From an uncultured Bacteroidales bacterium (GTDB lineage Bacteria > Bacteroidota > Bacteroidia > Bacteroidales > UBA10428), in NCBI GenBank assembly GCA_964392505.1, contig CAYMQP010000003.1, forward strand, positions 1 through 49,171: a DNA stretch of 49,171 bases, written 5' to 3'. How positions within the stretch are numbered: the first letter of the stretch is position 1; each line of letters opens with the position of its first letter. Shown piece by piece: positions 18,979-36,578 of the stretch. Below the pieces are notes generated by a model. It saw only the letters and a program-made list of their open reading frames with translations. It made no database searches and was not told the origin of the DNA. The position numbers were made by a program, and so were the translations under genes.

Positions 18979-21576
18979 ATGATTTATAAGTGCTGTAGTG
19001 AAGAACGACGAAAACTGGTAAAAGAGCATCCGTGGCTTAACGGAATTGATTTTATAGAGGTTTTGGATAATCCGTCAGACCCACCTGAGGTTCGCCAGAC
19101 AAATCTGCTGGTTCATTTTATAAAAGATATTTCATCTTTAGCGCTTACAAAAGAGAATATTATTATTGAAGGTGGTGAACGAATTACTAATATTAAAGTG
19201 TTAGAAGTAAACACTTATTTGACAGAGTCTCCTCCAACATCACCTCCATTGTCATCACCAATAGGAGATTTGACAAAAATCCTGAAAGTAAAAGTTCATT
19301 CAACAGGCGATTTTTCAATTTATAAACTTCAACTTGTAAAAAATTTACAGCATAAAACACCACCGGACGGCTTCGATCCAGTGCTTTCATCAGTAGAATT
19401 TTCTTTTAAAGTATCTTGTCCAAACAATTTTGATTGTAAAACAACGAACGAGTGTACCACATTACCAGATGAAATTCCAGATATCAATTATCTGGCAAAA
19501 GATTATAATAGTTTTCGTCAGATAATGCTTGACAGGCTGTCGCTGTTGTTACCAGACTGGCAGGAAAGCAGTCCGGCAAATTTGGGCATAACCATTGTGG
19601 AATTACTTGCCTATGTTGGGGATCATCTGAGTTATCAACAGGATGCTATCGCGACAGAAGCTTATATCGGAACTGCAAGAAAAAGAATATCTGTAAAACG
19701 CCATGCAAGACTGGTTGATTATTACATGCATGACGGTTGTAATGCCAGGGCCTGGGTACAAATAGTTATTAATCCTGCAATAGACAACATCAACTTGCAA
19801 AGTGGGCAAGGTATGTCAAAAACGAAATTTGTTACTTACATTCCGGAAAAATCAACTGTTATCAATTATAATTCAGAAGATTATGAAGATATTCTGCATG
19901 AGGATGTTCAGTTTTTTGAACTTATGCATAACAGCAAACTTTATAGTGAACATAACACTATAAAATTTTATACCTGGGGTGAAAAAGAGTGTTGCCTGCC
20001 TAAAGGAGCCACTGCTGCAACACTTTTGGGAAATCTTAGTAATCTGAAAGTTGGAGATGTTCTGATATTTACTGAGGTGAAAGGATCTGAAACAGGAGCA
20101 ACCGAAGACGCTGACCCTTCACACAGACATGCTGTACGTCTGACAGAAATTAATTTATCCTTCGATCCTATCGGATCAACAGTCCTACCTTCTCCGCTTA
20201 GTTCACCACCGGGCGATGGTTCCATTCCGGTAACAGAAATAAAATGGCACATTGATGATGCTTTACCTTTCCCGCTATGCATATCTTCATGCAATGGAAA
20301 TGTTCATTACAATGATGTGAGTATTGCCCTCGGCAACATCGTTCTGGTTGATCATGGGCTAACCTGGGTGGATAGTAATAGAGCATACTCTTTAAAACCT
20401 TATGTTGTGCCCGCTGCTAATCCAATCCTTTCTCAAAAATCATTAACTGATTCAGAACCTTGTGAAACTCCTGAAAATAAGGTCTCATTACCTCGTTATC
20501 GTCCTGTTTTAACAGTTAGTCCTCTTACTCATACTGCTATTTACAAACATCAACAACCCTTCCCATCTGCAAAATCAGTTATGAAATGGCCTTTAACAGA
20601 GGTACGACCTGAAATAATTCTTATTCAGGAAAATGATAATTCCATATGGGAAGCTAAACGCGATTTATTGAATAGTAACCACGATTCCAAACATTTTGTG
20701 GTTGAAATAGAATCGGATGGAGTAGCACATTTACGATTCGGTAATAATTTTCATGGAGCCATGCCGATATCCGGTAAACGGTTTAAAGCGATATATCGAT
20801 TGGGAAATGGAACTATTGGAAACATTGGTGCAGAAAAACTGGCTCATATTGTAAGCAACGATTCTAATATTTACTCAAATTCTTCATATATAACTAAAAT
20901 CTGGAATCCGTTACCTGCAAAAGGTGGGCAGGAACCTGAAAATATTGAAGAAGTACGTCAAAAAGCAGGATATGCTTTTCAGCAACAGGAAAGAGCTGTT
21001 ACTCCTGAAGATTATGCCTATCTGGCAAAAAAATCGGATAGCAGTGTGCAACGGGCAACGGCGAATTATCGATGGACGGGAAGTTGGTATACATCTTTTG
21101 TAACCTTTGATCGCTTTGGAGGAAAAAAAGTAAATAAGACCTTTGAAGATAAAATGATAAAAAAACTGAATTTATATAGAATGGCCGGACAGGACCTTAA
21201 AATAGATAATCCTTTGTTTGTGCCACTTAAGATAGAAATGGAAGTATGCCTGGAAAAAAATTATTTCGCAAGCGATGTAAAAAAAGCAATTTTGTCTGTA
21301 TTCACTAATAGTATTATGAAAAATGGAAAGCCAGGATTATTTCATCCCGACAATTTTACTTTTGGACAAACTTTATATTTAAGTACTTACTATGCTGTTG
21401 CCCAGGCAATACCAGGAGTAAAATCTGTTAATATCACCAAATTTCAGCGCCAGGGTATAACAAATGATGAAGCCCTTGAAACTGGTAAACTTTCCTTAGG
21501 CCTCCTTGAAATTGCCCGTTTGGATAACGATCCGAATTTTAAGGAAAATGGTATTCTCAATATAATTATCAGATGA
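18979..21576 (+). CDS. Baseplate J-like wedge protein (Afp11-like)
   Basis: CCSEERRKLVKEHPWLNGIDFIEV at the N-terminus. The central DYNSFRQIMLDRLSLLLPDWQESSPANLGITIVELLAYVGDHLSYQQDAIATEAY is gpJ-like. Size and position also fit. Confidence 0.8.
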   Translation: MIYKCCSEERRKLVKEHPWLNGIDFIEVLDNPSDPPEVRQTNLLVHFIKDISSLALTKENIIIEGGERITNIKVLEVNTYLTESPPTSPPLSSPIGDLTKILKVKVHSTGDFSIYKLQLVKNLQHKTPPDGFDPVLSSVEFSFKVSCPNNFDCKTTNECTTLPDEIPDINYLAKDYNSFRQIMLDRLSLLLPDWQESSPANLGITIVELLAYVGDHLSYQQDAIATEAYIGTARKRISVKRHARLVDYYMHDGCNARAWVQIVINPAIDNINLQSGQGMSKTKFVTYIPEKSTVINYNSEDYEDILHEDVQFFELMHNSKLYSEHNTIKFYTWGEKECCLPKGATAATLLGNLSNLKVGDVLIFTEVKGSETGATEDADPSHRHAVRLTEINLSFDPIGSTVLPSPLSSPPGDGSIPVTEIKWHIDDALPFPLCISSCNGNVHYNDVSIALGNIVLVDHGLTWVDSNRAYSLKPYVVPAANPILSQKSLTDSEPCETPENKVSLPRYRPVLTVSPLTHTAIYKHQQPFPSAKSVMKWPLTEVRPEIILIQENDNSIWEAKRDLLNSNHDSKHFVVEIESDGVAHLRFGNNFHGAMPISGKRFKAIYRLGNGTIGNIGAEKLAHIVSNDSNIYSNSSYITKIWNPLPAKGGQEPENIEEVRQKAGYAFQQQERAVTPEDYAYLAKKSDSSVQRATANYRWTGSWYTSFVTFDRFGGKKVNKTFEDKMIKKLNLYRMAGQDLKIDNPLFVPLKIEMEVCLEKNYFASDVKKAILSVFTNSIMKNGKPGLFHPDNFTFGQTLYLSTYYAVAQAIPGVKSVNITKFQRQGITNDEALETGKLSLGLLEIARLDNDPNFKENGILNIIIR

Positions 21577-21590
21577 TATAAAAATAAAAA

Positions 21591-24287
21591 GTGACTGAAG
21601 AAAAAATAAACAATAATATGGATAATTGTGCCTGTTGTAAGGGCATATCTGTGAAAGTTCCCACAGAAATTTACAACCGGCCGGGACTTGAGAGCATTTC
21701 ATACCGTATCGGGAATCATGAATTATTTAAAAAAGCATTAATATCCCGGTTAACCGGATCAAGACAACATGTATTGAGAAAATTGACATCCAGGGATAGT
21801 AATGATTTTACAATAGCTTTATTTGATGCCTGGTCAGTAATGGTAGATGTTTTAACCTTTTACCAGGAGCGTATAGCTAATGAATCGTATTTAAGAACGT
21901 CTACCGAAAGATTGTCCATGCTTGAACTTGCTCGTTTATTAGGTTATGAATTAAATCCGGGAGTGGCAGCAAGCGTATACATCGCTTTCACCCTGGAAGA
22001 TACGCCTGGCGCACTTTCTTTTAACCAAAACATTACATCTGCCGAAATAATTCCCCCGATAACCCTGGAAGAAGGAATAAAACTGCAAAGTATTCCGGGA
22101 CCGGGAGAAAAAGCACAAACTTTTGAAACAATAGAAGAAATTGAAGCCCGGCCACAATGGAATGAGATTCAGCCCAGGTTATATCAGCCCCAATTGATTT
22201 CTTCAGGGAGTGATCTTATATACATTCGGGGAATTACCAGCGGGTGCAGCAAAGGCGATATTATTCTTCTTTATGAGAATAATACATACACACTTAAAAA
22301 AATCGTTGATATAGAAAAAAATACTGATGACGATACTACTTGTTTACTTTTTGATGAGGATGCTTCGGTACCGGCATATCATAGTCCAACCTCTTTAACC
22401 CAAGGAAAAATATCAGATTACGAAAATAATACAATATTAGACACAACTGTAGTTACAGATATCCTGTCGAAAGAATGGTATAATGATGACTTATCAGTTT
22501 TATTGAAAATTAAAAACTGGTCGGAAGATGATTTAGTTAAAAGTGTCGAAAACCTTTTATCAGATGATGACAATAATGAATCCGGTGCATATGTATATCG
22601 AAGGCAGGCGTTTGTTTTCGGACATAATGCCATGAAAATTACTTTTGATACTACAAATAATACACCATTAGCACAATCTCAATGGACCGAATGGGATTTA
22701 GATGAATCAGCAGGAAATATATACCTTGATGATTCTTACAAAGAAATATTACCGGATGGTTTTATATCTATTCAATCAGGAAATACTGATCTATCGAGTG
22801 TTAAAACATACTCCGTTCAGGATGTAATATTGCAGTCGAGAACGGAATATGGAATAAGTGCGAAAACAACATGGGTTGTTTTCGAACCATCCGAACAATG
22901 GTGGATATCAAATGAAAGCGGAACAGATAAATTATCTGATATTAGAAATACCGTTGTATTTGCACAAAGTGAAAAAATTGAACTGGCTGAAATTCCAATT
23001 ATCGATACTGTTGCTGGTGATACCATAACTTTAAACGGATTGTACCTGGGCATAAAAAAAGGGCAAAAAGTTATTGTTCATGGAGAAATTATTGATCCGG
23101 CAGGAGTAATATCCAGCGAACTGAAAACTATAAAGCAGGTGGTTATTAAAAAAGGATATACAGAGATTCAGTTCAGCAAATCACTGTACTATGAATATAT
23201 CAGGGAAGAACTTGTTATTTACGCAAATGTTGCGTTAGCTACCCATGGAGAAACTGTTGAAGAAATTCTTGGTAGTGGTAATGCAGCAAAAACATTTCAA
23301 AAATTCACTTTAAAAAATACACTGCTCACTTTTGTTAGCGCTTCCACACCAAGTGGCACCAAATCAACTTTAGAAATCCGGGTTAATGATATTTTATGGA
23401 AAAATGTTAATACATTTTACGGATATGGGCCTGATGATCGCATTTATGTTACCCGCATTGATAATGAGGGATATACCACAGTTATTTTTGGTGATGGAGT
23501 TACAGGGGCACGATTGCCCGGAGGTCAGAATAATATTAAAGCAAAATACAGAAAGGGATTGGGATTAGACGGAATATTGAAGAAAGATCAACTGTCACAA
23601 CTTATGACCAAACCATTGGGCGTTAAAAGTGCAACAAATCCCATTGAATCTTCAGGCGGTGCTGATCAGGAAAACCTGGTCAATGCTAAAAAAAATGCTG
23701 CCTTAAGTGTACTGACACTCGATCGTATAGTTTCTTTACAGGATTTTGAGGATTTTGCCCGTGCTTTTGCTGGTATTGAAAAATCCCTTGCCGTTTGGAG
23801 CTGGAGACATGGAAGAAGATGTATTTTCATTACGGTTGCAGGACCAAAAGGAGTCTTAATTAAAAAGGACAGCACAGTTTATGGCAATCTAATAAAAGCT
23901 CTAATGAATTCAAGTAATCCTAATACCCATGTTATTGTTGAATCATATCGGCCAAGATATTTTACATTATCTGCAAAAATCAAAATAGATCCGGAATATG
24001 AAGCAAATTTGGTAATTACTGAAATAGAATCAGAATTGCGTTCAGAGTTTGCATTTGATAAACGTGAATTTGGACAACCAGTGATATTAAGCGAAATTGT
24101 ATCGGTAATCCATAATATATCCGGTGTTACAGCCATCGATATGGATGAATTATATTATTCAGATGAAACGGCTTCACTTAACCAGGAACTAAAGGCCTCA
24201 ATGCCCCTTCCGGGGGATGAAACCACCCTTTCGGCAGAATTACTGACCCTTGATTCACGACCTGTTAACCTGAGTCAGATGTTATGA
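21591..24287 (+). CDS. P2 gpI-like baseplate/tail protein (Afp12-like)
   Basis: NCACCKG...IYNRPGLESISYRIGNHELFKKALISRL...FDAWSVMVDVLTFYQERIANESYLRTSTE matches the conserved N-terminus of eCIS Afp12-type proteins as I recall it. GTG start at 21591, with an alternative ATG at 21618. Confidence 0.7.
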   Translation: MTEEKINNNMDNCACCKGISVKVPTEIYNRPGLESISYRIGNHELFKKALISRLTGSRQHVLRKLTSRDSNDFTIALFDAWSVMVDVLTFYQERIANESYLRTSTERLSMLELARLLGYELNPGVAASVYIAFTLEDTPGALSFNQNITSAEIIPPITLEEGIKLQSIPGPGEKAQTFETIEEIEARPQWNEIQPRLYQPQLISSGSDLIYIRGITSGCSKGDIILLYENNTYTLKKIVDIEKNTDDDTTCLLFDEDASVPAYHSPTSLTQGKISDYENNTILDTTVVTDILSKEWYNDDLSVLLKIKNWSEDDLVKSVENLLSDDDNNESGAYVYRRQAFVFGHNAMKITFDTTNNTPLAQSQWTEWDLDESAGNIYLDDSYKEILPDGFISIQSGNTDLSSVKTYSVQDVILQSRTEYGISAKTTWVVFEPSEQWWISNESGTDKLSDIRNTVVFAQSEKIELAEIPIIDTVAGDTITLNGLYLGIKKGQKVIVHGEIIDPAGVISSELKTIKQVVIKKGYTEIQFSKSLYYEYIREELVIYANVALATHGETVEEILGSGNAAKTFQKFTLKNTLLTFVSASTPSGTKSTLEIRVNDILWKNVNTFYGYGPDDRIYVTRIDNEGYTTVIFGDGVTGARLPGGQNNIKAKYRKGLGLDGILKKDQLSQLMTKPLGVKSATNPIESSGGADQENLVNAKKNAALSVLTLDRIVSLQDFEDFARAFAGIEKSLAVWSWRHGRRCIFITVAGPKGVLIKKDSTVYGNLIKALMNSSNPNTHVIVESYRPRYFTLSAKIKIDPEYEANLVITEIESELRSEFAFDKREFGQPVILSEIVSVIHNISGVTAIDMDELYYSDETASLNQELKASMPLPGDETTLSAELLTLDSRPVNLSQML

Positions 24288-26476
24288 GTTTCGATATAGA
24301 ACAATTATACAAACTTTTACCGGCCTATCATAGGGAACGTGATACCAAGCTTGGTAACGAACTGCTAACTTATTATCAGAAATCGGTTTTACAGCAATTA
24401 ACTGAAAATTACAATAATCTTTCAGATAAAGAAAGTGCCGAAGCATTGCGTTTAAAAAAACTTATTGATGAAACTGAAAGAGGTCCCCTTAAAGCAATTC
24501 TTTCATTATTTGCTGAACAAATTGCCATGCTTGAAGACAATTTGGAGCAACTATATGATGATCAGTTTATAGAAACCTGTGCAGAGTGGATTGTTCCATA
24601 CATAGGTGACTTAACCGGAACACGAGGACTACTCGATTTTCCGAATATGACGTTCAGTCAGAGAGCCCAGGTTGCCAATACTATTGCATATCGAAGAAGA
24701 AAAGGAACAGCAGCAGTAATTGAACAATTGGCTTGCGATGTAACCGGATGGGTTGCGAACGTTGTTGAGTATTTTCAGTTAATAGCTACAACCCAATATT
24801 TGAATCATCTTCGCTTAAACAATCTGGTTACATTAAATCTAAGAGACAATGATAGCCTGGAAAAACTACATTCACCATTCGATAATGTAAGCAGAAATGT
24901 TGATGTGAGAAATATTCAAAATAAACGGGGAAAATATAACATACCTAATTTAGGAATTTTTTTATGGCGGAATACAAGTTTTTCATATACTCAATCACCG
25001 GCCTGTAAAATGGATGACCGAAGGTACATGTTTGATATAATAGGTTATGAAGTCCCTTTATATAATAACCCTGTTACAGAAGAAAAAATAACCGACCTGG
25101 CCAAACCTGAAAATGTTCCTCACCGGATTAGTCGATATTTATTGTATAAATATTTCGATAAATATTATGGTAAAGGAAAAAGCATATTACTATACAAAGA
25201 TGGTAATGAAATTATCCCGGATTCAAACACAACCTTGTCTGACTTATTTACTGTATGTGATTTAAGTGATAAAAAAGATATAAATGACGTTATTATCGGC
25301 TGGAATAATATGCCACAGCACAAGATTGCAATTGATCCTGAATTAGGCAGAATAGCCTTTCCTGCTTCTGCGACACCTCCCACAGAGGTTAAAACAACAT
25401 ACTATCGCGGTGCATTGGCAGAAATCGGTGGAGGCGAATATGGAAGATCAGATACATTTCAGGTTAATACTGGTAAAATTGTTAAAGTGCCTAATAATGA
25501 AATAACTGTACAGGCAGCGGTAAATGCGTTGGTTGCCGAGGGTGGAATAGTTGAGGTCCAAAATAATGAATGTTACAATGAAAATCTGGTAATTGATATC
25601 CCTGCAGGAAAAAAAATAGAATTAAGAGCAGCCGATAAAAAAAGACCCGTTCTGTTTTTAAACGGAAGTTCCATTGTGAGTGGAGGAGAAAATGCCGAAT
25701 TCAGTATAAATGGTTTTCTTGTTGCCGGAGGTAATTTCAGGGTACCTGAAAAAAACAACCTTAATATTGATAATAAACTTAATAAATTCACGATTCAGCA
25801 TGCAACAATCCGAAGCGAAAAGGAACACAATGTTTTATCACCGCCATTACAAAGCGGTCAACCTGTAATCATTGTCGAATGCTCGGATACATCTTTAGTA
25901 ATAAGTAACTCCGTTTTGTGCAGTATTCGTTGTATTGACACAGCTAATATTAAAATAAACGATAGTATTATTGATGCCGCTTCTTCAGTAAACGAGGCAA
26001 TCTCCGGTATTGAAAACCAGAAACCGTCTGCCATCCTTGAAATTAAAAATTCAACAATTATAGGAAAAGTCCATACCCTAATGATGAAAATGGTTTCAAA
26101 TACCATTATTATGGCGGATCTGACGAATTTCGATAGTTGGGAATATCCTGTTTGGACTGACAGAATACAAAAAGGCTGCATTAGGTTTTCATATGTTTCT
26201 ACCGGTTCTAAAATTCCAAAACCCTATCATTGTGTTCCTTCAGGTTCCGATGAAGACAGCAATATAAAACCAGTATTTAAATCATTACAATTTGGTAGTT
26301 CGGGATATTGTCAGCTCAGTTCCAAATGTTCATCGAAAATTATGGAAGGTGCAGATGATAGTTCCGAAATGGGTGTTTTTCACGATATATATCAATCCCA
26401 GCGTATTAAAAACCTAAATGCGCGATTAGAAGAATATCTTCGCTTTGGCCTTGAAGCGGGAATATTCCTGGTTTGA
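24284..26476 (+). CDS. eCIS distal baseplate-associated protein with a probable right-handed beta-helix region; function unknown
   Basis: ATGA coupling to the gpI-like gene. Repetitive short strands such as NSVLCSIRCIDTANIKINDSIIDAAS / IKNSTIIGKVHTLMMKMVSNTIIMAD suggest a beta-helix. Confidence 0.55.
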   Translation: MSFDIEQLYKLLPAYHRERDTKLGNELLTYYQKSVLQQLTENYNNLSDKESAEALRLKKLIDETERGPLKAILSLFAEQIAMLEDNLEQLYDDQFIETCAEWIVPYIGDLTGTRGLLDFPNMTFSQRAQVANTIAYRRRKGTAAVIEQLACDVTGWVANVVEYFQLIATTQYLNHLRLNNLVTLNLRDNDSLEKLHSPFDNVSRNVDVRNIQNKRGKYNIPNLGIFLWRNTSFSYTQSPACKMDDRRYMFDIIGYEVPLYNNPVTEEKITDLAKPENVPHRISRYLLYKYFDKYYGKGKSILLYKDGNEIIPDSNTTLSDLFTVCDLSDKKDINDVIIGWNNMPQHKIAIDPELGRIAFPASATPPTEVKTTYYRGALAEIGGGEYGRSDTFQVNTGKIVKVPNNEITVQAAVNALVAEGGIVEVQNNECYNENLVIDIPAGKKIELRAADKKRPVLFLNGSSIVSGGENAEFSINGFLVAGGNFRVPEKNNLNIDNKLNKFTIQHATIRSEKEHNVLSPPLQSGQPVIIVECSDTSLVISNSVLCSIRCIDTANIKINDSIIDAASSVNEAISGIENQKPSAILEIKNSTIIGKVHTLMMKMVSNTIIMADLTNFDSWEYPVWTDRIQKGCIRFSYVSTGSKIPKPYHCVPSGSDEDSNIKPVFKSLQFGSSGYCQLSSKCSSKIMEGADDSSEMGVFHDIYQSQRIKNLNARLEEYLRFGLEAGIFLV

Positions 26477-26722
26477 TAAAGTTAAGAAACTATTTACTGA
26501 GAAAGCGGTTATAATTTGAGCCTAATAGGTTCATTGAATCAGTAATTACAAAAAAATGGAATAATTGAATGTTGGGATCTTATATAAAAACTTCGTGGTT
26601 TACTACTTCCATTATTCCAACATTATTAAATTAAAGGCAAAGCTTACAGCAGATCACCACGGCTATAATGACGTGGAATTTCAAATATTATCAAAATTGT
26701 TAACCTTTTAAACCCAAAATAA

Positions 26723-29700
26723 ATGTCAGGCGATTATTCACGTAAAACGTTCGATAATAAGAAACATTACAGTACTGTTCAACAACAACAGGGACGGGCA
26801 TTACTCGATTCAGATTGGAATGAATATTCTGATATTTTAAAATACAGGAGTCAGACCACAATTCAGGATATAATAGGTCCATCAGGTGTTCCAAAGGATG
26901 AAAATGGTTTTCAAATCAGTATTTCTCCCAATGGTAATGATTTAAACATCACACCTGGTGAAATTTATATAGAAGGCATTTTATGTGAACTGGATGAAAA
27001 TACATTACCAGTTTCTTATTTAAAGCAACCTCATTACCCCAATCCTGATATATCTTACTTTATTACAAGTCCATTGATAAGCCCGCCGGCAAGTCCCCCA
27101 TTAAGTCCACCTTCAAGCCCGCCGGCAAACTATTCATCAATAAATATAAAAGATGGGATATTTATTATATATCTTGACGCCTGGGAAAGAGAAATCAATT
27201 ATCTGGATGATAAATTAATAAAAGAAATTGCTCTGGGTGATGCCGATTCGACTACAAGATTGCAGGTAGTATGGCAGATCAAATTATTGGAGGTAACACC
27301 GATTCAGGGATTAGAGTCAATATGTGAAGGTCAATATATTGAATGGATTGAAAAAACAACTCCTCCTACCGGAAAATTAAATGCACGAACTGTTGAGGAT
27401 CAAAATCAGGAAGGACCATGTATAATTCCCCCAACCACAGGTTATCGCAGACTTGAAAACCAACTATACAGAATTGAGATACACAAAGGAGGAACCAGAG
27501 ATCATGCAACTATTAAATGGTCGCGCGACAATGCTTCCGTGCAGACCAAGATTATTAAAATTGACGGAACAATAATTAGCGTAGCTGATTTGGGTAAAGA
27601 TGAAGTTCTGGGATTTGCAGCTGATCAATGGGTGGAAATAATTGATGAAGAAGCCGCATTAAATTGCTCATCAAATTCTTTATTTCAAATTGATAAAATC
27701 ACACCGAAAACAAACGAAATCACATTAAAAAGTTCTGCGGATTCATTTAAGAATAAGAAAAATCTTAAACTCTGCCGGTGGGACCAGTCAGGAATATTAG
27801 CCACAGCCGACGGAATGACTATGAAAACAACCTGGATGAAAATTGAAGATGGAATTGAAGTGTGTTTTAGCGATGGTAATTATTGTGACGGTGATTATTG
27901 GCTGATACCTGCTCGTACTGCAACCGGTGAAATAGAATGGCCCCCTTATAAAATTCCAAATCTTAATCCCGAAGAACAATTGCCATCAGGAATCAAACAT
28001 CATTTTTGTAAACTGGCAATACTGGAAGTTCAAAACGGGCAGGGCAAGCTAACCGATTGCCGTATGATTTTTCCGGAATTAACAAATCTTACAGCAGAAG
28101 ATATCAAATATGATCATAGCTACTGCAACATCAACAAAGCCGATAATGTACAGGAAGCTATTGACATGCTGTGCGCTTTAAATGACATGCGCGATCATAA
28201 TAAATTTATTCATGGTTATGGAGTGGTTTGTGGAATGAAGGTAATTTGCGGTGGAATTCGTACCGATGTAATGGTGGAAAAAGGTTATGCACTTGATTGT
28301 GAAGGAAATGTTATCCAGGTTAAATCTCAAAATGAAGTGCCTTATAATATTGTAGCCCAGGCTGCTGCCGCAAATCTTCTCGATAATAATGGAGATGGTG
28401 AAGTAGCTTTATATATAACAGGATGTACTTCAACCGGCCCTGATTTGTTGATAGAAGAATTTATTAAAAAAGATTTTTGGGATGAGGTACTTGAGGGCAC
28501 TTTATTGAAAAACTTTTACGACGGATGTATAAAAAATCTTTTTGACTTCCTAAAAAGAAATTTTCCAATAAATTTTTCCGATACTGTTCCGGTTCCTCTT
28601 TCTCAAAGAAGATTTACTGCTCTGACTAACCTGTTATTTCAATTTGTAATGTCTGCCAGCGGACCATATGCTTTTATGTCAGGGATTAACGTTCAGAATC
28701 GTGATACCGATATTGATTGCAGCGATGAAGAAGAGATAGGAAAATATGAAGATCATATCTTATGGTGTTTGTATAAAGAATTAAAGGTTCTGCTAAATAG
28801 TCAAACATTTTGTGGTATGTTCGATGGTGATGCTCTGTTTCCTTCTTATGAAATATCCGAAGGGCTGGATACGATTTTTGGACCGGTATTTCGCCTGCAT
28901 CATAAATTTAAACTCAATCCAAAAGGAAGTTACGGATATACTAGTGGTTTAGATAATAAAATATACGTTTACAATCTCGATAACAAAGAATTTATTCAGG
29001 CAGTGGTATTTCCTGCCAGCGCAAAAATATTAGTACAGGATTTTGTAATAAACTCAGCTGGTACTGAATTATATGCACTTGGTTTATTGGATGATAGGGA
29101 TTCGGTTTTTGCCAAGGCAGAAATTGATACAGATGGAAAATTAACCTGGGAAAATTCTTCGGTAAGATGTGGAGAAAGGTACAAAAGCTTGGCTATTAGT
29201 CCTTCAGACAGAATTTATACTATTCAGATTGCAACCGGTTTATATGAAGTTACCAATATAGGGCTTCCATCTTTCTCACTAACACAACAAAGAGCATTTA
29301 ATGCTACCGGAAAGCTTATTATTTCGGAAGATGGTGCCTATGCATTCGCGGCAGAATATCAAACAAATAATAACGAATCAGCTGCATTTACCCATATCAC
29401 GCGGTTTGATTTAGCTAATAATGCTATTCCTCCAGATTCATATCATTACCTGGGTTATGATTTTAGCGACGACATTGCTCATGTTGACGATATTATATAT
29501 ATCACAGGTTATGTACAGGCTAATCCCGGACAAAGGGTTCTCGGAGGATATGATTTAACTACCGGTAATCCTGCTTTTCCAACCATTGATTTGGAAAATA
29601 GCTGGTTGATACGATTGGCTCCATTCACCGATATAAACGGCGATGAATTAATGCTCGTTTCCCTGGCAGATAAATTTAAAATTATAACAGTTGAATTAAA

Positions 29701-30187
29701 TACCTACACACGGGTCAATAATTTCCGGATACCGACACAAATCTTCCCAATGGATATGGTTGTTGATCAAGATAATCAAATAGCATTTGTTATCAATATT
29801 CTTGTTAATACCCTTACACAAATAGATCTTAGTGCAGCCTTCGATGTTGTTAATCCGCCAAACTTTGCTAATGATCCTCCAAACATGATAGCAACATACC
29901 GGGATGGAGTAATAGATGCCTTTAAAGATTTACTCAGTCACTTCCTGCAATATCTTAAAGATTGTTTCAGTGATAAATTTTTGGTAGATTGTCCCGAGTG
30001 TGCCGAAAATGATAAGGTATACCTCGCAAGTATAGAGATAAAAAACAATAAAGTATACAATATCAATAATTTCAGCAAACGAAAATATGTGAAAACTCCG
30101 GAATTATGGGAGTACTGGTTGTCAACAATCCCAATACTGCCAATTTTTAAAGAAAAATTTAAGGAATTTTGCGGAAAAATACTATAA
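26723..30187 (+). CDS. Large (1154 aa) eCIS-associated protein, DUF6519-like N-terminus, probable beta-propeller-like region; candidate target-recognition component
   Basis: The N-terminus SGDYSRKTFDNKKHYSTVQQQQGRALLDSDWNE resembles what I recall of DUF6519 starts. NKIYVYNLDNKEFIQAVVFPASAKILVQDFVINSAGTELYALG looks like a YVTN-type propeller blade. There is a 245-nt gap upstream. Confidence 0.5.
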   Translation: MSGDYSRKTFDNKKHYSTVQQQQGRALLDSDWNEYSDILKYRSQTTIQDIIGPSGVPKDENGFQISISPNGNDLNITPGEIYIEGILCELDENTLPVSYLKQPHYPNPDISYFITSPLISPPASPPLSPPSSPPANYSSINIKDGIFIIYLDAWEREINYLDDKLIKEIALGDADSTTRLQVVWQIKLLEVTPIQGLESICEGQYIEWIEKTTPPTGKLNARTVEDQNQEGPCIIPPTTGYRRLENQLYRIEIHKGGTRDHATIKWSRDNASVQTKIIKIDGTIISVADLGKDEVLGFAADQWVEIIDEEAALNCSSNSLFQIDKITPKTNEITLKSSADSFKNKKNLKLCRWDQSGILATADGMTMKTTWMKIEDGIEVCFSDGNYCDGDYWLIPARTATGEIEWPPYKIPNLNPEEQLPSGIKHHFCKLAILEVQNGQGKLTDCRMIFPELTNLTAEDIKYDHSYCNINKADNVQEAIDMLCALNDMRDHNKFIHGYGVVCGMKVICGGIRTDVMVEKGYALDCEGNVIQVKSQNEVPYNIVAQAAAANLLDNNGDGEVALYITGCTSTGPDLLIEEFIKKDFWDEVLEGTLLKNFYDGCIKNLFDFLKRNFPINFSDTVPVPLSQRRFTALTNLLFQFVMSASGPYAFMSGINVQNRDTDIDCSDEEEIGKYEDHILWCLYKELKVLLNSQTFCGMFDGDALFPSYEISEGLDTIFGPVFRLHHKFKLNPKGSYGYTSGLDNKIYVYNLDNKEFIQAVVFPASAKILVQDFVINSAGTELYALGLLDDRDSVFAKAEIDTDGKLTWENSSVRCGERYKSLAISPSDRIYTIQIATGLYEVTNIGLPSFSLTQQRAFNATGKLIISEDGAYAFAAEYQTNNNESAAFTHITRFDLANNAIPPDSYHYLGYDFSDDIAHVDDIIYITGYVQANPGQRVLGGYDLTTGNPAFPTIDLENSWLIRLAPFTDINGDELMLVSLADKFKIITVELNTYTRVNNFRIPTQIFPMDMVVDQDNQIAFVINILVNTLTQIDLSAAFDVVNPPNFANDPPNMIATYRDGVIDAFKDLLSHFLQYLKDCFSDKFLVDCPECAENDKVYLASIEIKNNKVYNINNFSKRKYVKTPELWEYWLSTIPILPIFKEKFKEFCGKIL

Positions 30188-30237
30188 TAAGAATTTATTC
30201 AAATAATTATAAATTTATATTACAAATAATTTAAACT

Positions 30238-31236
30238 ATGAATTACCCTCAATTTAATATATCAGGTCGTGTAATTAACTCAAAAACAGAAGAAGGTATT
30301 TATAACCTCAGAGTTGAAGCATGGGATAAAGATGCGAAATATAATGACCTTGTTGGTGTTGTTCAAACCGGCAGGGATGGCAGATTTGAAATTTCTTTTG
30401 ATTTATCGTATTTCAGGGAATATTACCCGGATAATGCTCCAGATCTTTTTTTCAAAGTTTTTAAAAGCAAGAAGTTGCTAAAAAGTACTGAAGATTCAGT
30501 GATCTGGAATGCAGGGCAGAAAACTGATGTAACCATACGTATTGAAATAACCGAAGAACAAAGAGAAGGAAAAGATTATATCAGCAGTGAGCACATTTTT
30601 AAATATGCAAATTTCTTTGTGAAATCTGATTTTAAAGGCATCTACAAACAAACAAAAGCTAAAGCCTTTAGATCTGCTACTTTTGCTAAAGATATGTTTA
30701 AGAATACACTGAACAACTTGAACATAGAACCAATAAGTGTTGAAGGACCAAGAATTGATGAAATTGTTAACCAGGATTTAAATGTTGCCCAAAATAATTT
30801 GGAAGCAAGACAGATAACAGTGAACGAAGTAAAGGAATATAATCCTGAAATCAATAAAAATTCACTAAGGGACATAACTTCTCTCCCTCTTAATCTTAAA
30901 GCAGGACAAAAAGTGAATTTATACCAGGAAAACGGAAAAGTGCGATATTATTCAGTTATAAAAACTGAAAAAATATCAGATACTAATATGGCCGATCAGG
31001 TAATAGACCAACAGAAAGAAATAGGAAACCTGCGTGAAGAAATAAAACAAGCCAGGATCAAAGAAGAAAAAAAGGATGAAGAAATCCTGCAACTTCAAAA
31101 AACGGTAAAATCCCTTCAAAAAGAACAATCAGAAATTAAACAAATAATACAGAAAAATCCTGATATCAAACTTACCGATACAAATAATATTCCGGTTTCT
31201 AAAAAAACAAGGAAAAAGCCTAGTACGGAAAAATAA
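30238..31236 (+). CDS. Transthyretin/carboxypeptidase-regulatory-like N-terminal domain plus C-terminal coiled coil; function unknown
   Basis: ISGRVINSKTEEGIYNLRVEAWDKDAKYNDLVGVVQTGRDGRFEISF is a CarboxypepD_reg-like pattern. The C-terminus QQKEIGNLREEIKQARIKEEKKDEEILQLQKTVKSLQKEQSEIKQ has a heptad-like charge pattern. Confidence 0.5.
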   Translation: MNYPQFNISGRVINSKTEEGIYNLRVEAWDKDAKYNDLVGVVQTGRDGRFEISFDLSYFREYYPDNAPDLFFKVFKSKKLLKSTEDSVIWNAGQKTDVTIRIEITEEQREGKDYISSEHIFKYANFFVKSDFKGIYKQTKAKAFRSATFAKDMFKNTLNNLNIEPISVEGPRIDEIVNQDLNVAQNNLEARQITVNEVKEYNPEINKNSLRDITSLPLNLKAGQKVNLYQENGKVRYYSVIKTEKISDTNMADQVIDQQKEIGNLREEIKQARIKEEKKDEEILQLQKTVKSLQKEQSEIKQIIQKNPDIKLTDTNNIPVSKKTRKKPSTEK

Positions 31237-31427: not shown

Positions 31428-33656
31428 ATGCAAGAACTACCCTTAGTTTCATGTATTATGCCAACTTATAACCGGCGTGAGTTTATCCCTCACGCCATTC
31501 GTTATTTTATACGTCAGGATTATCCCAATAAAGAATTAATAATTATTGATGACGGCACTGATCCTGTTGATGACCTTATCCCGGAAAACTATGATATAAG
31601 TTATTACCGACTGGATCAAAAAATAACACTAGGTGAAAAACTGAACCTGGCATGTGAATATGCTTCAGGTCCAATAATTGCTCACTGGGATGATGATGAC
31701 TGGTATGCCCCATGGAGATTAACCTATCAGATAAATGAATTGCTTAAAAACCAGACTTCTATTTGTGGTATTAATAACCTGTTATACCTGGATATCCGAA
31801 GTAAAACGGGTTATAATTATATTTATCCATCCAATCAGAGAACATGGCTCCTGGGAAGTTCTCTTTGCTATAAAAAGGATTTTTGGAAGACTCATCATTT
31901 TGCTCATATTAATGTTGGAATGGACGGATTATTTGTCTGGAGCACAACTTCTGAACATATTACTGTTCTCCCCGATCCCACTTTTTCAGTTCATATTATA
32001 CATAATGATAATATAAGCCCGAAAATCACATCGGGAACTTGGTGGCATCCTTGCCCGGTTGAAAAAATAAAAGGATTATTAAATGATGATTGGAAATATT
32101 ATCAAAATGGAAAAATTATTTCGAATATTGATATAAAAGCTCCGATTGTTAATTTCAAATCTTCATACAGTTATAAGAAAGAAAATACAAGGCAATTAAA
32201 AAATATATTTGCTTGTCTGGTACATGAAAATGAAGATTGTGTTATCGACTTGGTACGAAATCTCCACTATCACGACCCTACATCTGTGATCATTCTTTAC
32301 AATGGAAGTGAAATCCAAAATTTAATTCAGAAAGATTTTCCTTATGAAAAATTTAATACCCGGATCCATCCGTCCCCTACGCCTCAAAAACATGGGTATC
32401 TGCATAACTTCGCTTTGGAGTGCATGGAATATGCCCTTGAAAACATCCTATTCGATACTCTAACGATAGTCGATTCTGATCAATTGGCTATTCGATCAGG
32501 ATATACTGAATTTTTAAGTAATTACTTTGCTGAAACATACAATGTTGGAATGCTTTCCTGTAATCCCGAACGAATCCTTCAAAATAATAAAATCAATCAT
32601 GTAGCAGCTCAGGCATTTAAAGAATATAATCTTTGGATTCCCTTACTAAAGCAATTCCCTGACGGTGAAAATAAATTTGTGCATTGGACCTTCTGGCCAT
32701 CAACAGTCTTTACTTTTAATGCCGCTAAGGATCTCGTGAATTTGTTCAAAAAAAATAAGACTCTTAAAGAAATTATGAGAATCACGAAAATCTGGGCCAC
32801 GGAAGAGGTAATACTTCCCACACTGGTAAGACTTTTGGGGTATGATATTAAAGAAAATCCTTGTAGCTTTAATTATGTCAAGTACAGAAAACAGTTTACT
32901 AAACAAGATATCGAAAATGCTTATACTATTGATGAGGTATTTTGGGTGCATCCTGTTGCACGGGAGTATGAAAATGAAAACAGACAGTTAATACGAGAAA
33001 GATGCAACGGGTATATAAAAAATGGCAAAGAAGTAAATTGGGAGAAAATACAGTCTACCTTTTTAATTTACAAAACCGATTTGATCAATAAAATTAGAAA
33101 AATCCCAGGGTGGTTAAGTGATAAGGAAGCTGAATTACTTATCGAAACAACTTTGATGAGCCTCCACCGATGCCCACAATATAATAATATCGTGGAAATC
33201 GGTAGTTACTATGGGAAATCCACTATCATCTTCGGGACTGTATTGAAAAAAAGCCAGATTCCCGGAAAAGTATACGCAATAGACCTCCATGATGGAAAAC
33301 TTGGCGCTGTAGATCAGGGATTAAAAACTTATCCTCCTTCTCTGGCTGGATTTAAAAAAAATATAATAGACACAAAACTGGGAGAGTTTATCGAAATAAT
33401 TATAGATAAAGCAACCAATGTAAAATGGAAAAATCCCGTATCATTACTATTTATAGATGGTCTTCATGATTATCCGAATGTCGTTGCAGATTTTAATCAC
33501 TTCGACGGCTTTTTAATCCCTGATAGCTATATTGCTTTCCATGATTATGCAGATTACTTTCCTGGTGTTAAAAAATGGGTGAATGAATTGTTAAGTACCG
33601 GCTTTTACAAAAAAATCGGGCAAATGGATAGTTTAATAGTCATTAAAAAAAAATAA
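31428..33656 (+). CDS. Multidomain glycosyltransferase family 2 / unknown central domain / class I SAM-methyltransferase fusion
   Basis: The N-terminus PLVSCIMPTYNRREFIPHAIRYFIRQDYPNKELIIIDDGTD and the DDDD stretch in HWDDDDWY are GT2 features. The C-terminus IVEIGSYYGKSTIIFG...LLFIDGLHDYPNV is Methyltransf_24-like. The ATG at 31428 is preferred over the TTG at 31422. No signal peptide. Confidence 0.75.
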   Translation: MQELPLVSCIMPTYNRREFIPHAIRYFIRQDYPNKELIIIDDGTDPVDDLIPENYDISYYRLDQKITLGEKLNLACEYASGPIIAHWDDDDWYAPWRLTYQINELLKNQTSICGINNLLYLDIRSKTGYNYIYPSNQRTWLLGSSLCYKKDFWKTHHFAHINVGMDGLFVWSTTSEHITVLPDPTFSVHIIHNDNISPKITSGTWWHPCPVEKIKGLLNDDWKYYQNGKIISNIDIKAPIVNFKSSYSYKKENTRQLKNIFACLVHENEDCVIDLVRNLHYHDPTSVIILYNGSEIQNLIQKDFPYEKFNTRIHPSPTPQKHGYLHNFALECMEYALENILFDTLTIVDSDQLAIRSGYTEFLSNYFAETYNVGMLSCNPERILQNNKINHVAAQAFKEYNLWIPLLKQFPDGENKFVHWTFWPSTVFTFNAAKDLVNLFKKNKTLKEIMRITKIWATEEVILPTLVRLLGYDIKENPCSFNYVKYRKQFTKQDIENAYTIDEVFWVHPVAREYENENRQLIRERCNGYIKNGKEVNWEKIQSTFLIYKTDLINKIRKIPGWLSDKEAELLIETTLMSLHRCPQYNNIVEIGSYYGKSTIIFGTVLKKSQIPGKVYAIDLHDGKLGAVDQGLKTYPPSLAGFKKNIIDTKLGEFIEIIIDKATNVKWKNPVSLLFIDGLHDYPNVVADFNHFDGFLIPDSYIAFHDYADYFPGVKKWVNELLSTGFYKKIGQMDSLIVIKKK

Positions 33657-34572: not shown

Positions 34573-35826
34573 ATGTCACGAACAGACCTAATCAATTACC
34601 TGATTTGGTTACGAAATTTCAATAACTACCTTGAAATCAGTATTCACGATGAACAAATTAATTTTACTACTGTTAAGTGTCATAACAAGCTGATCGTTAA
34701 TGGATATCAATCCAACCAATTTTTTAAAAAAAACAACAAGCAGTTCGATATTGTTTTTATTGATGGCGTTCACACTGAAGAACAGGCATTAAAGGATATT
34801 AAACATGGATTATTTTGTTTAACCAAAGAAGGGATAATCGTTATCCATGATTGTTTACCTCCCGATGAATGGCATCAAAGGGAACTTGAAAAATATAATG
34901 CGGGAGAAAATTGGAATGGTACTGTTTGGAAAGCCGCATTAAGAGTTTTTAATGATTCGAGGTTTCATTGTGTCCTGCTAGATACTGACTGGGGATGTGG
35001 GATAATTGATACCTCTAAAACGAGTAAATCGCTATCGATAAAACTCCCTCAAAAACTGAATTACAAATTACATTTCTCTTATTTGCTTAAATACAAAAAA
35101 TCTGTTCCCACTTACCTTCGAGATAATTTAAAGGTATTTTACCATCTCGCATGTATGGGTAATTGGATGGATATATATCAGGAACAAATAACACATCTTA
35201 AATCAAATGGATTTCAGAAAATCAGTTTGACAATACTGGGTAATAAGAAAGATATTTTCATTGCAAATGATCTACTTAAGGAACTGGATTTTCAATATAA
35301 TGTTCTGTTTACTGCACCAGAGCTTACTCATTTTGAAAAACCAGCATTAATGGCCATTGAAAATTATGCAAAGCAAAACAATGGCTATGTATTGTATCTT
35401 CATAGTAAGGGTGTGAGTGCTCCTTCAAACGATATAAAGACAAAATGGCGACGTCTAATGATGAGGGAACTGGTGGAAAACTGGGAGAGGTGCGTAATGC
35501 AATTACTGAACTATGATGTTATTGGAGTAAATTGGAGAGATATGGATGACGCTTCACATTATAGCGGTAATTTCTGGTTTGCATCAACAAGTTATATTAG
35601 ACAACTTGAAGACTTTAATCATTATTATGAAAATCCAAGATATAAAATCTGGGATGCTGTTAATGACAAACGACTAGGCTGTGAATTTTGGATTGGCTCA
35701 GGCAGTAAAAAGCCACGATTGCTATCACTTTACTGTAGAAATGTAGATTTCTGTAATCAGAATTACTGGAGAAATAAGGATATTCGATTAAACATAAGTA
35801 CCAAGATGCCATGTTTGATGACCTGA
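34573..35826 (+). CDS. Class I methyltransferase-like N-terminal domain fused to an uncharacterised (possibly sugar-transferase) C-terminal domain
   Basis: FDIVFIDGVHTEEQALKDIKHGLFCLTKEGIIVIHDCLP is Methyltransf_24-like. The C-terminal LYLHSKGVS...KWRRLMMRELVENW...HYSGNFWFASTSYIRQL is unassigned. Confidence 0.6.
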   Translation: MSRTDLINYLIWLRNFNNYLEISIHDEQINFTTVKCHNKLIVNGYQSNQFFKKNNKQFDIVFIDGVHTEEQALKDIKHGLFCLTKEGIIVIHDCLPPDEWHQRELEKYNAGENWNGTVWKAALRVFNDSRFHCVLLDTDWGCGIIDTSKTSKSLSIKLPQKLNYKLHFSYLLKYKKSVPTYLRDNLKVFYHLACMGNWMDIYQEQITHLKSNGFQKISLTILGNKKDIFIANDLLKELDFQYNVLFTAPELTHFEKPALMAIENYAKQNNGYVLYLHSKGVSAPSNDIKTKWRRLMMRELVENWERCVMQLLNYDVIGVNWRDMDDASHYSGNFWFASTSYIRQLEDFNHYYENPRYKIWDAVNDKRLGCEFWIGSGSKKPRLLSLYCRNVDFCNQNYWRNKDIRLNISTKMPCLMT

Positions 35827-36578
35827 CATTAGTTATATGCTCATATAACACACCAAAAATACTGGATCTTTGCCTCAAAAGTTATGTTTACCACCATAAT
35901 AGAGGTCCGCATAAGATTGTAATCGTGGAAAATTCTACCGAAGAGGCAACTAGACAGTTTTTAGATAGCAATCAAATTACCTACTTAAAAAACCCTGGGG
36001 GTACCCATTCACTTTCTATTGATAAAGGACTTAATATTGTGGATACCAAATATTCACTTTTGATTGATACCGATATTGTTTTTAGAAAAAATATTGGCGA
36101 AACATTTGAAATTTTCAAAGACGGTAAATATACATTGATGGGAGAGATTCAGGCAAATAGAGGAGGGTTCCTATTATACCCAAGAGTTGCGCCATATTTT
36201 TGTTTTATCAATATGAAGAGTATTCGATCAAGCAACATAAGATTCCATAATGAACAGAAGATTGCGAAAACCAATTCGACTGATTTTTTTCAAAATATCC
36301 CTATTAACCATCAAAACGAGAATAAAAGGTTTTATGATGTTGGTTCTACCTTCTTTGAGGAAATTCAAAAACATAATTTTAGAATTTCGAATTTGGAAAG
36401 CATTGATAGTATTGTTTTCCATGCAGAATCGTTAAGCTGGGCCATACAATCCGGAATCGAGGAGTACATGAATATAGGTAAAGAAAGGCGGGATCGTTTT
36501 TACAATATTGCTGGAATGTATGATAAAATAAATATTAAAGGCTGCTATGTAAGCTCATTACATCAGGGTATTATCTAA
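35811..36578 (+). CDS. Glycosyltransferase family 2
   Basis: LTLVICSYNTPKILDLCLKSYVYHH...IVIVENSTEEATRQFL...LLIDTDIVF (a DxD-type motif). 16-nt overlap with the upstream gene. Confidence 0.7.
   Translation: MFDDLTLVICSYNTPKILDLCLKSYVYHHNRGPHKIVIVENSTEEATRQFLDSNQITYLKNPGGTHSLSIDKGLNIVDTKYSLLIDTDIVFRKNIGETFEIFKDGKYTLMGEIQANRGGFLLYPRVAPYFCFINMKSIRSSNIRFHNEQKIAKTNSTDFFQNIPINHQNENKRFYDVGSTFFEEIQKHNFRISNLESIDSIVFHAESLSWAIQSGIEEYMNIGKERRDRFYNIAGMYDKINIKGCYVSSLHQGII

Follow-up and report, generated by a model that had tools for sequence, protein, structure and literature searches.

What an injection particle attacks is set by its fibre, and in most loci of extracellular contractile injection systems (eCIS) the fibres have long gone unidentified. 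The same question, which proteins make up the fibre end of the particle, is raised by a 49,171-nucleotide stretch from an uncultured Bacteroidales bacterium (contig CAYMQP010000003.1, hereafter the window). This stretch is one whole contig of a 4.1-Mb metagenome-assembled genome (MAG), and domain and family annotation of its open reading frames (ORFs) identified a complete eCIS operon on the + strand. An earlier note on this DNA had proposed that three genes at the distal end of the operon stand in place of the tail fibres. The three ORFs, of 730, 1154 and 332 amino acids (aa), are present on the + strand at the positions given below, and we refer to their products as P0001, P0002 and P0003. 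We consider it probable that they constitute the fibre end of an eBAP5-type eCIS, with P0001 as the adaptor, P0002 as the fibre and P0003 as a detached distal module. That the three belong to a distal baseplate/fibre module, as the earlier note had it, is upheld by domain content, gene order and co-occurrence with eCIS cores, to which gene fusions are added here. The features that carry this assignment are the following.

24284..26476, + strand: P0001, 730 aa, predicted baseplate wedge/fibre-adaptor protein (gene position, weak PF10076 and PF09684 matches, structure model, conservation)
26723-30187, + strand: P0002, 1154 aa, predicted DUF6519 fibre (PF20129)
26723..28177, + strand: P0002 residues 1-485, DUF6519/eBAP5 baseplate-anchor region (PF20129; shared by all 85 loci compared)
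27068..27127, + strand: Ser-Pro-Pro tract, P0002 residues 116-135 (low model confidence)
28823..29842, + strand: P0002 residues 701-1040, 7-bladed WD40-like beta-propeller (model confidence, Foldseek)
29843..30187, + strand: P0002 residues 1041-1154, Cys-rich C-terminal region with CPxC at 1090-1093 (conservation)
30238..31236, + strand: P0003, 332 aa (alignment, PF01060 in relatives, fusions)

The probable fibre P0002 and its proposed detached distal part P0003

The N-terminus of P0002 matched DUF6519 (PF20129) with an E-value of 1.5e-56 and 192.7 bits against a cut-off of 22.4, in agreement with a six-frame search of the genome, and the resemblance named in the earlier note is thereby confirmed. 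Nachmias et al. (Nat Commun, January 2026; PMC12923769) list DUF6519, under the name eBAP5, among five domains by which eCIS tail fibres are anchored to the baseplate, and eBAP5 fibres lie downstream of Tail_P2_I-type adaptors in loci that are largely devoid of Afp12 (PMC12923769). Because DUF6519 is the eBAP5 fibre anchor, the locus has a fibre of its own and none has been replaced; P0002 falls into a published, computationally defined eCIS fibre class (PMC12923769). The agreement with that class is not confined to the domain, which scores far above threshold: the gene follows the baseplate genes and a Tail_P2_I-type gene, the locus lacks classical Afp12/Afp13, and the C-terminal part varies across the wider family. 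In the published examples the modules are of macroglobulin, pectin-lyase, lectin or hemagglutinin type, and the class was said to correlate with Actinobacteriota (PMC12923769), whereas the sub-family of P0002 combines a helical stalk with a WD40-like propeller and a Cys-rich end, occurs mainly in Bacteroidota and Acidobacteriota, and has its last module as a separate polypeptide. Neither a split partner nor glycosyltransferases are mentioned in the eBAP5 paper (PMC12923769).

The comparison set consisted of 85 related loci, 80 of them genome loci reached via the DUF6519 family and five metagenome or assembly contexts. A contig search with P0002 as a single query returned no loci, whereas an alignment-based search succeeded; DUF6519 was present in 5 of 401 sampled genomes of the phylum. 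Residues 1 to about 485 of P0002 were the only part common to all 85 fibres. In 56 of the loci the match was restricted to positions 1 to ~485 of the hidden Markov model (HMM) and the C-terminal parts were unrelated, while the other 29 matched P0002 over its full length.

In the window, the operon encodes a LuxR regulator, sheath, gp19-type tube, T4_baseplate-like protein, Pvc16_N and AAA ATPase. These are followed by three cargo proteins of the DUF4157/eCIS_core type, by CIS_tube, a gpV spike, a DUF4280 protein that is PAAR-like, and gp25, and then by two large TIGR02243 proteins (J1 and J2) and P0001, P0002 and P0003. The order o376-spike-PAAR-gp25-J1-J2-P0001-like-DUF6519 was essentially invariant in the 85 loci, which represent more than 12 bacterial phyla and the Methanotrichaceae. 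A P0001 homologue was encoded immediately 5' of the fibre gene in 79 loci, and in the remaining six a contig end interrupts the locus or ORFs are merged. The two loci from Methanotrichaceae, which are methanogenic archaea (L068 and L080), showed the same baseplate-fibre order with a DUF6519 fibre of ~700-760 aa. The phyla were intermixed on a tree of J2, indicating horizontal transfer of the whole system. Thus, the three proteins co-occur tightly with eCIS cores elsewhere, the reverse of the lack of co-occurrence that the earlier note had named as grounds for abandoning its proposal.

The structure model of P0002, with a mean predicted local distance difference test score (pLDDT) of 76.6, comprises the anchor, a disordered Ser-Pro loop, a small beta domain, a helical region (residues 595-691), a propeller (715-1035) and the Cys-rich end. 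The repeats that had been called propeller-like form a 7-bladed WD40-like propeller in the model, with a pLDDT of ~90, and a Foldseek search of the PDB matched this region to WD40 proteins at an E-value of 2e-13 with template-modelling (TM) scores (target) of 0.65-0.79 and ~1800 matches at E <= 1e-3. Propeller modules of uncultured Caudovirales proteins also matched it at E 3e-13. Within the full-length sub-family the propeller was the least conserved part of P0002 (column identity 0.53, and 0.40 in blades 861-980), whereas both termini were the most conserved (0.70-0.72), with the Cys-rich end at 0.70. Given that the propeller is the least and the termini are the most conserved parts, the modelled propeller is likely a ligand-binding module held between two structural interfaces. 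The conserved character of the Cys-rich C-terminus, to which the earlier note had drawn attention, is evident from residues C1090, P1091 and C1093, which were invariant in 28 homologues. At the other end of the protein, residues 7-97 (window 26741-27013; within the first ~100) gave a below-cut-off match to DUF4815 at E 5e-6 and a match to the phage family phrog_877 at E 8.5e-6, and phage proteins may share this outermost N-terminal part.

P0003, which is single-copy in this genome, has an architecture that is fixed in its family: a putative transthyretin-like domain (residues 1-105) precedes a conserved middle domain (106-246), after which a coiled coil (~247-312) leads into a basic tail. The transthyretin-like domain named in the earlier note is better seen in the relatives than in the window copy; PF01060 was found in 17 of 25 family members (best E 4e-6) and the family profile matched 5ek8 in its N-terminal domain at E 2.2e-8, whereas P0003 of the window gave weak matches only (PF13620 at E 0.045). 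That N-terminal domain of 5ek8, obtained with P0003, was also the only useful result of single-sequence PDB searches with the three proteins. The coiled coil is likewise present, but spans ~60-65 residues and not the ~90 claimed for it. The only recurrent family for the middle domain was PASTA (PF03793, residues ~165-240), matched by 10 of 22 members at E <= 1, with a best value of 5.6e-5 that is sub-threshold; no PASTA match was detected in P0003 of the window and no PASTA chain in the PDB profile search. Judging from these family matches, the middle domain is possibly PASTA-like.

The relation between P0003 and the fibre was apparent from the 29 loci with full-length fibres. In 13 of them a separate P0003 ORF follows the fibre gene at a distance of -25 to +86 bp, whereas in 12 the segment equivalent to P0003 residues 107-310, which covers the middle domain and the coiled coil, is fused in frame ~20 aa past the fibre C-terminus and the transthyretin-like domain is missing. 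The fused forms come from Acidobacteriota, Actinomycetota, Fibrobacterota, Verrucomicrobiota, Gammaproteobacteria, Bacteroidales and Chloroflexota; the remaining four loci end at a contig edge or, in one case, have no detectable P0003 match. This Rosetta-stone pattern of fused and separate forms shows that P0003 works with the fibre end, and P0003 is probably a split-off piece of the fibre and not the independent third component that the earlier note had described. From the pattern of fusions, P0003 would be a detached fibre tip, the reading we prefer, or else a chaperone, either retained or of the intramolecular type. For a non-covalent joint of P0003 to the fibre, its extra transthyretin-like domain is the evident candidate.

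We also considered whether the transthyretin-like domain might be a docking module specific to eCIS, and rejected this because the domain is found in non-eCIS contexts. In Nitrosomonas europaea (L089, 8001-9170), a protein containing only the transthyretin-like N-terminal domain of P0003 is encoded among insertion sequence (IS) elements, adjoining Tc-toxin-like genes (ABC_toxin_N, TcA_TcB_BD). As the L089 protein sits by Tc-toxin-like genes, the domain is not restricted to eCIS fibres.

The baseplate wedge and the proposed adaptor P0001

Of the genes upstream of the fibre, the one for an 898-aa protein had been read as gpI-like, and this part of the baseplate is assigned differently here.

18979..21576, + strand: J1, gpJ/gp6-like baseplate wedge protein, 865 aa (TIGR02243, phrog_219, 9GTP, T4 gp6)
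21591..24287, + strand: J2, second gpJ/gp6-like paralogue, 898 aa (TIGR02243, phrog_219/6)
26477..26722, + strand: A+T-rich spacer of 246 nucleotides (nt) between the P0001 and P0002 genes (sequence)

J1 matched TIGR02243 at 2.7e-77 and phrog_219 at 1.8e-26, as well as Cis11 of the Streptomyces contractile injection system (CIS; PDB 9GTP) at 1e-8, and T4 gp6. J2 matched TIGR02243 at 3.4e-62 and also phrog_219 and phrog_6, and because of these matches the gene at 21591-24287 is a second gpJ/gp6-like paralogue instead of the gpI-like gene. The two paralogues are clearly diverged (865 and 898 aa) and are encoded in tandem in the related loci. In the Streptomyces CIS and the R-pyocin, each wedge pairs two gpJ-like subunits with a single gpI-like one (PMC12237407). 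There the two gpJ-like subunits are copies of one protein, whereas here they are two distinct paralogues, and the tandem arrangement suggests a wedge composed of J1, J2 and P0001.

The only gpI/Mu gp48-like signal in the locus was located in P0001, at residues 68-195 (within about 61-231). In the P0001 family, PF10076 (Phage_Mu_Gp48) was detected in 21 of 26 members and PF09684 (Tail_P2_I) in 12 of 26 at E <= 0.05, all below threshold, with best E-values of 9.5e-6 and 4e-4, respectively. The gene is situated between the gpJ-like genes and the fibre gene, as the P2 and Mu gene orders have it. Indeed, the series gp25, J1, J2, P0001, P0002, P0003 mirrors W-J-I-H-G of P2 and 46-47-48-S-U of Mu, in that a gp25-like, a gpJ-like and a gpI-like gene are followed by the fibre gene and a gene for a small downstream protein, and the weak but recurrent matches to Mu gp48 and P2 gpI occur at the equivalent N-terminal position. 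P0001 differs from P2 gpI in being four times longer (730 aa against ~180 aa) and in having an additional predicted beta-helix. Taken together, family matches and gene position make it likely that P0001 is homologous to gpI. Its gene is coupled to J2 by the ATGA overlap reported in the earlier note, which is real (gttATGAgt, 24284-24287).

The P0001 family has more than 5,678 homologues with ~50% identity over the full length in Bacteroidota, Acidobacteriota, Planctomycetota and others. By this measure P0001 is a conserved baseplate protein, as conserved as a core part, and does not behave as a variable receptor binder; the three proteins remain the best candidates for target binding, as had been suggested. 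Three parts can be distinguished in P0001: the gpI/gp48-like region (~61-231), a predicted beta-sandwich that passes into a right-handed beta-helix (together 232-630, the helix at about 400-630), and a C-terminal region (631-730) that is again conserved. The monomer model was confident only at 232-630, with a pLDDT of ~90 at 400-630. Foldseek matched the helix to PL6 lyases, a pectate lyase and tailspikes (7o78, 5gkd, 7dmk) with probabilities up to 0.99, E >= 1.5e-3 and TM <= 0.39, so that the beta-helix proposed in the earlier note is suggested by the model and by the Foldseek probability, although not by the E-values. Conservation is highest in segments 61-231 and 631-730, precisely where the monomer model failed to fold, as would be expected for interfaces in an obligate complex.

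Two in-frame fusions bear on the position of P0001 in the particle. J2 and a P0001-like sequence are joined in a Promineifilaceae MAG (L086, 5264-9964), and a P0001-like sequence and the fibre are joined in a Thermomicrobiales MAG (L062, 6530-14077). A heterotrimeric J1:J2:P0001 wedge is supported by these fusions together with the precedent of the Streptomyces CIS and the R-pyocin.

The gap between P0001 and the 1154-aa gene, which the earlier note had taken as probably holding a promoter, is real, and its length is unusual in view of the ~8-40 nt in the related loci. A sequence scan of the spacer found no sigma-70-like or consensus promoter and no terminator, and its fold was not significant (z-score -0.45). 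Within the spacer, GGAATAATTGAATGTTGG ... CCATTATTCCAACATT form an imperfect inverted repeat with arms at about 26558-26578 and 26609-26630.

The proposed fibre end and competing explanations

From the results described above we infer a wedge stoichiometry, a mode of docking and a trigger of firing. P0001 would be the third subunit of each wedge beside the two gpJ-like paralogues, with its gpI/gp48-like N-terminal region in the wedge core, while its beta-helix would project as a platform and its conserved C-terminus would receive the fibre. Residues 1-485 of P0002 would anchor the fibre to the baseplate, and the helical stalk would carry the 7-bladed propeller, the likely ligand binder, with the conserved Cys-rich end after it. 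P0003 would be the distal end of the fibre, made separately and probably docked via its extra transthyretin-like domain, and ligand binding by the propeller and P0003 would trigger firing.

Several observations weigh against this arrangement. The eBAP5 class is itself a computational assignment, and the sub-family described here is known from sequence alone. P0001 of the window does not reach the Pfam thresholds for gpI and gp48 (17.2 bits against a cut-off of 37.4, and 15.4 against 20.6); when the P0001 family was compared by hhalign with single sequences, P2 gpI was not matched and Mu gp48 reached only E 0.09 (83 columns), and the PDB profile search with P0001 returned no CIS baseplate chain. 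The L086 and L062 fusions, each known from one MAG contig, could have arisen through faulty assembly. Across many phyla the P0002 distal module keeps 26-50% identity, unlike fast-evolving receptor binders. Lastly, transthyretin-only homologues are also present in unrelated contexts, and for this reason the docking role of the domain can only be inferred.

One could envisage that P0003 is not a structural tip but a fibre-assembly chaperone comparable to P2 gpG, Mu U or T4 gp57A, and an intramolecular one where it is fused, that would aid oligomerisation of the fibre and then be released or cleaved. T4 gp57A contains a coiled coil, and P0003 has this gp57A-like feature. Moreover, the P0003 gene comes immediately 3' of the fibre gene, as the genes for gpG in P2 and U in Mu do, and the fused and separate forms of P0003 alternate as intramolecular and separate fibre chaperones do; in eCIS loci, Peptidase_S74 has been named as a fibre chaperone of the intramolecular type (PMC8213781). 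The agreement with P2 gpG and Mu U is, however, one of gene position without any similarity, and Pfam, PHROGs and NCBIfam scans found no similarity of P0003 to tail-fibre-assembly families. P0003 bears domains of a binding type instead (transthyretin-like, possibly PASTA-like), and no protease or cleavage module was seen in the fused forms, and we therefore regard a chaperone as unlikely. We are more doubtful still about a role of P0002 and P0003 in tethering the particle to some producer-cell structure instead of recognizing a target. The thylakoid-anchored tCIS and CisA of Streptomyces are precedents for it, as anchored CIS are already known (PMC12237407), and both the unusual conservation of the distal module across phyla and the basic C-terminal tail of P0003, with its possibly PASTA-like and hence cell-wall-binding domain, would fit. 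On the other hand, conservation is lowest in the propeller blades, which is what a diversifying ligand binder should show, and the locus has the DUF4157 cargo typical of released eCIS. Anchoring of the three proteins in a membrane was rejected on the basis of a hydropathy scan, which detected neither a transmembrane segment nor a signal peptide in P0001, P0002 or P0003.

The resemblance of the P0001 beta-helix to PL6 enzymes, pectate lyases and phage tailspikes, at Foldseek probabilities up to 0.99, raises the question of whether P0001 is an enzyme, that is, a tailspike-like polysaccharide lyase or depolymerase that itself binds or degrades the receptor. The family profile also matched PL6 alginate lyases weakly (E 0.3-0.6), and E433, E446, R448 and H506 are invariant within the helix. 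Against this, every Foldseek E-value exceeded 1e-3 with TM <= 0.39, no catalytic motif was identified, and the beta-helix is a common fold with purely structural uses. Furthermore, ~50% identity across phyla is atypical of depolymerases, which track variable glycans. An enzymatic P0001 seems to us the least probable of these explanations, and we retain the arrangement of adaptor, fibre and detached distal module. With this reading, the locus is placed in the newly catalogued eBAP5 class, the baseplate assignment is corrected to two gpJ-like paralogues and a long gpI-like adaptor, and the receptor binder of a widespread sub-family is probably a two-polypeptide assembly, since gene fusions tie P0003 to the fibre. 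The general picture of eCIS is unchanged by these results.

A glycosyltransferase gene and the Ser-Pro tracts

Downstream of P0003 the operon encodes an enzyme that carries sugar-transferring and methylating domains.

31428..33656, + strand: GT2 glycosyltransferase (GT), second GT-like region and Methyltransf_24 in one fusion enzyme (Pfam; orthologues downstream in 17 loci)

Orthologues of this GT2-GT-Methyltransf_24 protein (GT domain E 1e-87 to 1e-105) follow the fibre module on the same strand in 17 loci of a Bacteroidota/Acidobacteriota clade, comprising 14 loci with full-length fibres, the window counted, and three anchor-only loci; weaker GT matches were found in three further loci, Scalindua included. 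In six loci (L003, L011, L012, L013, L020 and L029) the gene lies between the fibre module and the DUF4157 cargo genes, with gaps of <20 nt in several, and from this placement we conclude that it is an operon gene and not merely a neighbour. Two of the six, L011 and L013, belong to the cultured Mucilaginibacter aquariorum JC4 and M. flavidus RT5R15. A hydropathy scan found no transmembrane segment in the GT enzymes.

The Ser-Pro-Pro (SPP) tract SPLISPPASPPLSPPSSPP of P0002 (residues 116-134) is a predicted disordered loop, with pLDDT < 50 over 116-133, and from its sequence it is a candidate site of O-glycosylation. It is the longest such tract in the locus, as had been observed before, and a shorter Ser-Pro tract is present in J1 (residues 84-97; window 19228-19269). 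We compared the occurrence of such tracts in loci with and without GT, a GT-positive locus being one with any same-strand GT-domain match. Ser/Thr-Pro tracts of at least three units were found in the fibre in 8 of 20 GT-positive but 2 of 64 GT-less loci, and in J1 in 5 of 18 GT-positive but 1 of 51 GT-less loci; the raw counts by presence of a GT match were 13 of 21 against 1 of 64. The GT-positive loci cluster on the J2 tree, so that shared ancestry can explain most of this association, and in a phylogenetically controlled pair test only about one in six independent contrasts was informative and none was opposite, which leaves the test without power.

We raise only tentatively, as a possibility that is more doubtful than not, that the soluble GT2-GT-methyltransferase O-glycosylates the Ser-Pro loops of P0002 (116-135) and J1, which would yield a glycosylated particle. 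About as novel would be a remodelling, by these enzymes, of the surface glycan of the producer itself that guards against self-targeting; the enzymes may also have an unrelated role. A literature search found no report of glycosylation in any CIS; if the proposal were true, this would be the first glycosylated contractile injection system particle and would add post-translational glycosylation to CIS biology. According to a paper that cites Freeman et al. 2023 for the point, phage-encoded GTs glycosylate structural proteins in mycobacteriophages (PMC12363180). As far as that account goes, the likeness is one of functional analogy only, in that soluble GT genes adjoin the structural genes of a phage-type particle assembled in the cytoplasm; unlike the mycobacteriophage case, the enzyme here is a GT2-GT-methyltransferase fusion, its glycan is predicted only, and its substrate could be the producer surface.

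The window also has genes for another methyltransferase (34573-35826) and another GT2 (35811-36578). These accessory genes may take part in the modification, and the glycan may carry methylated sugars.

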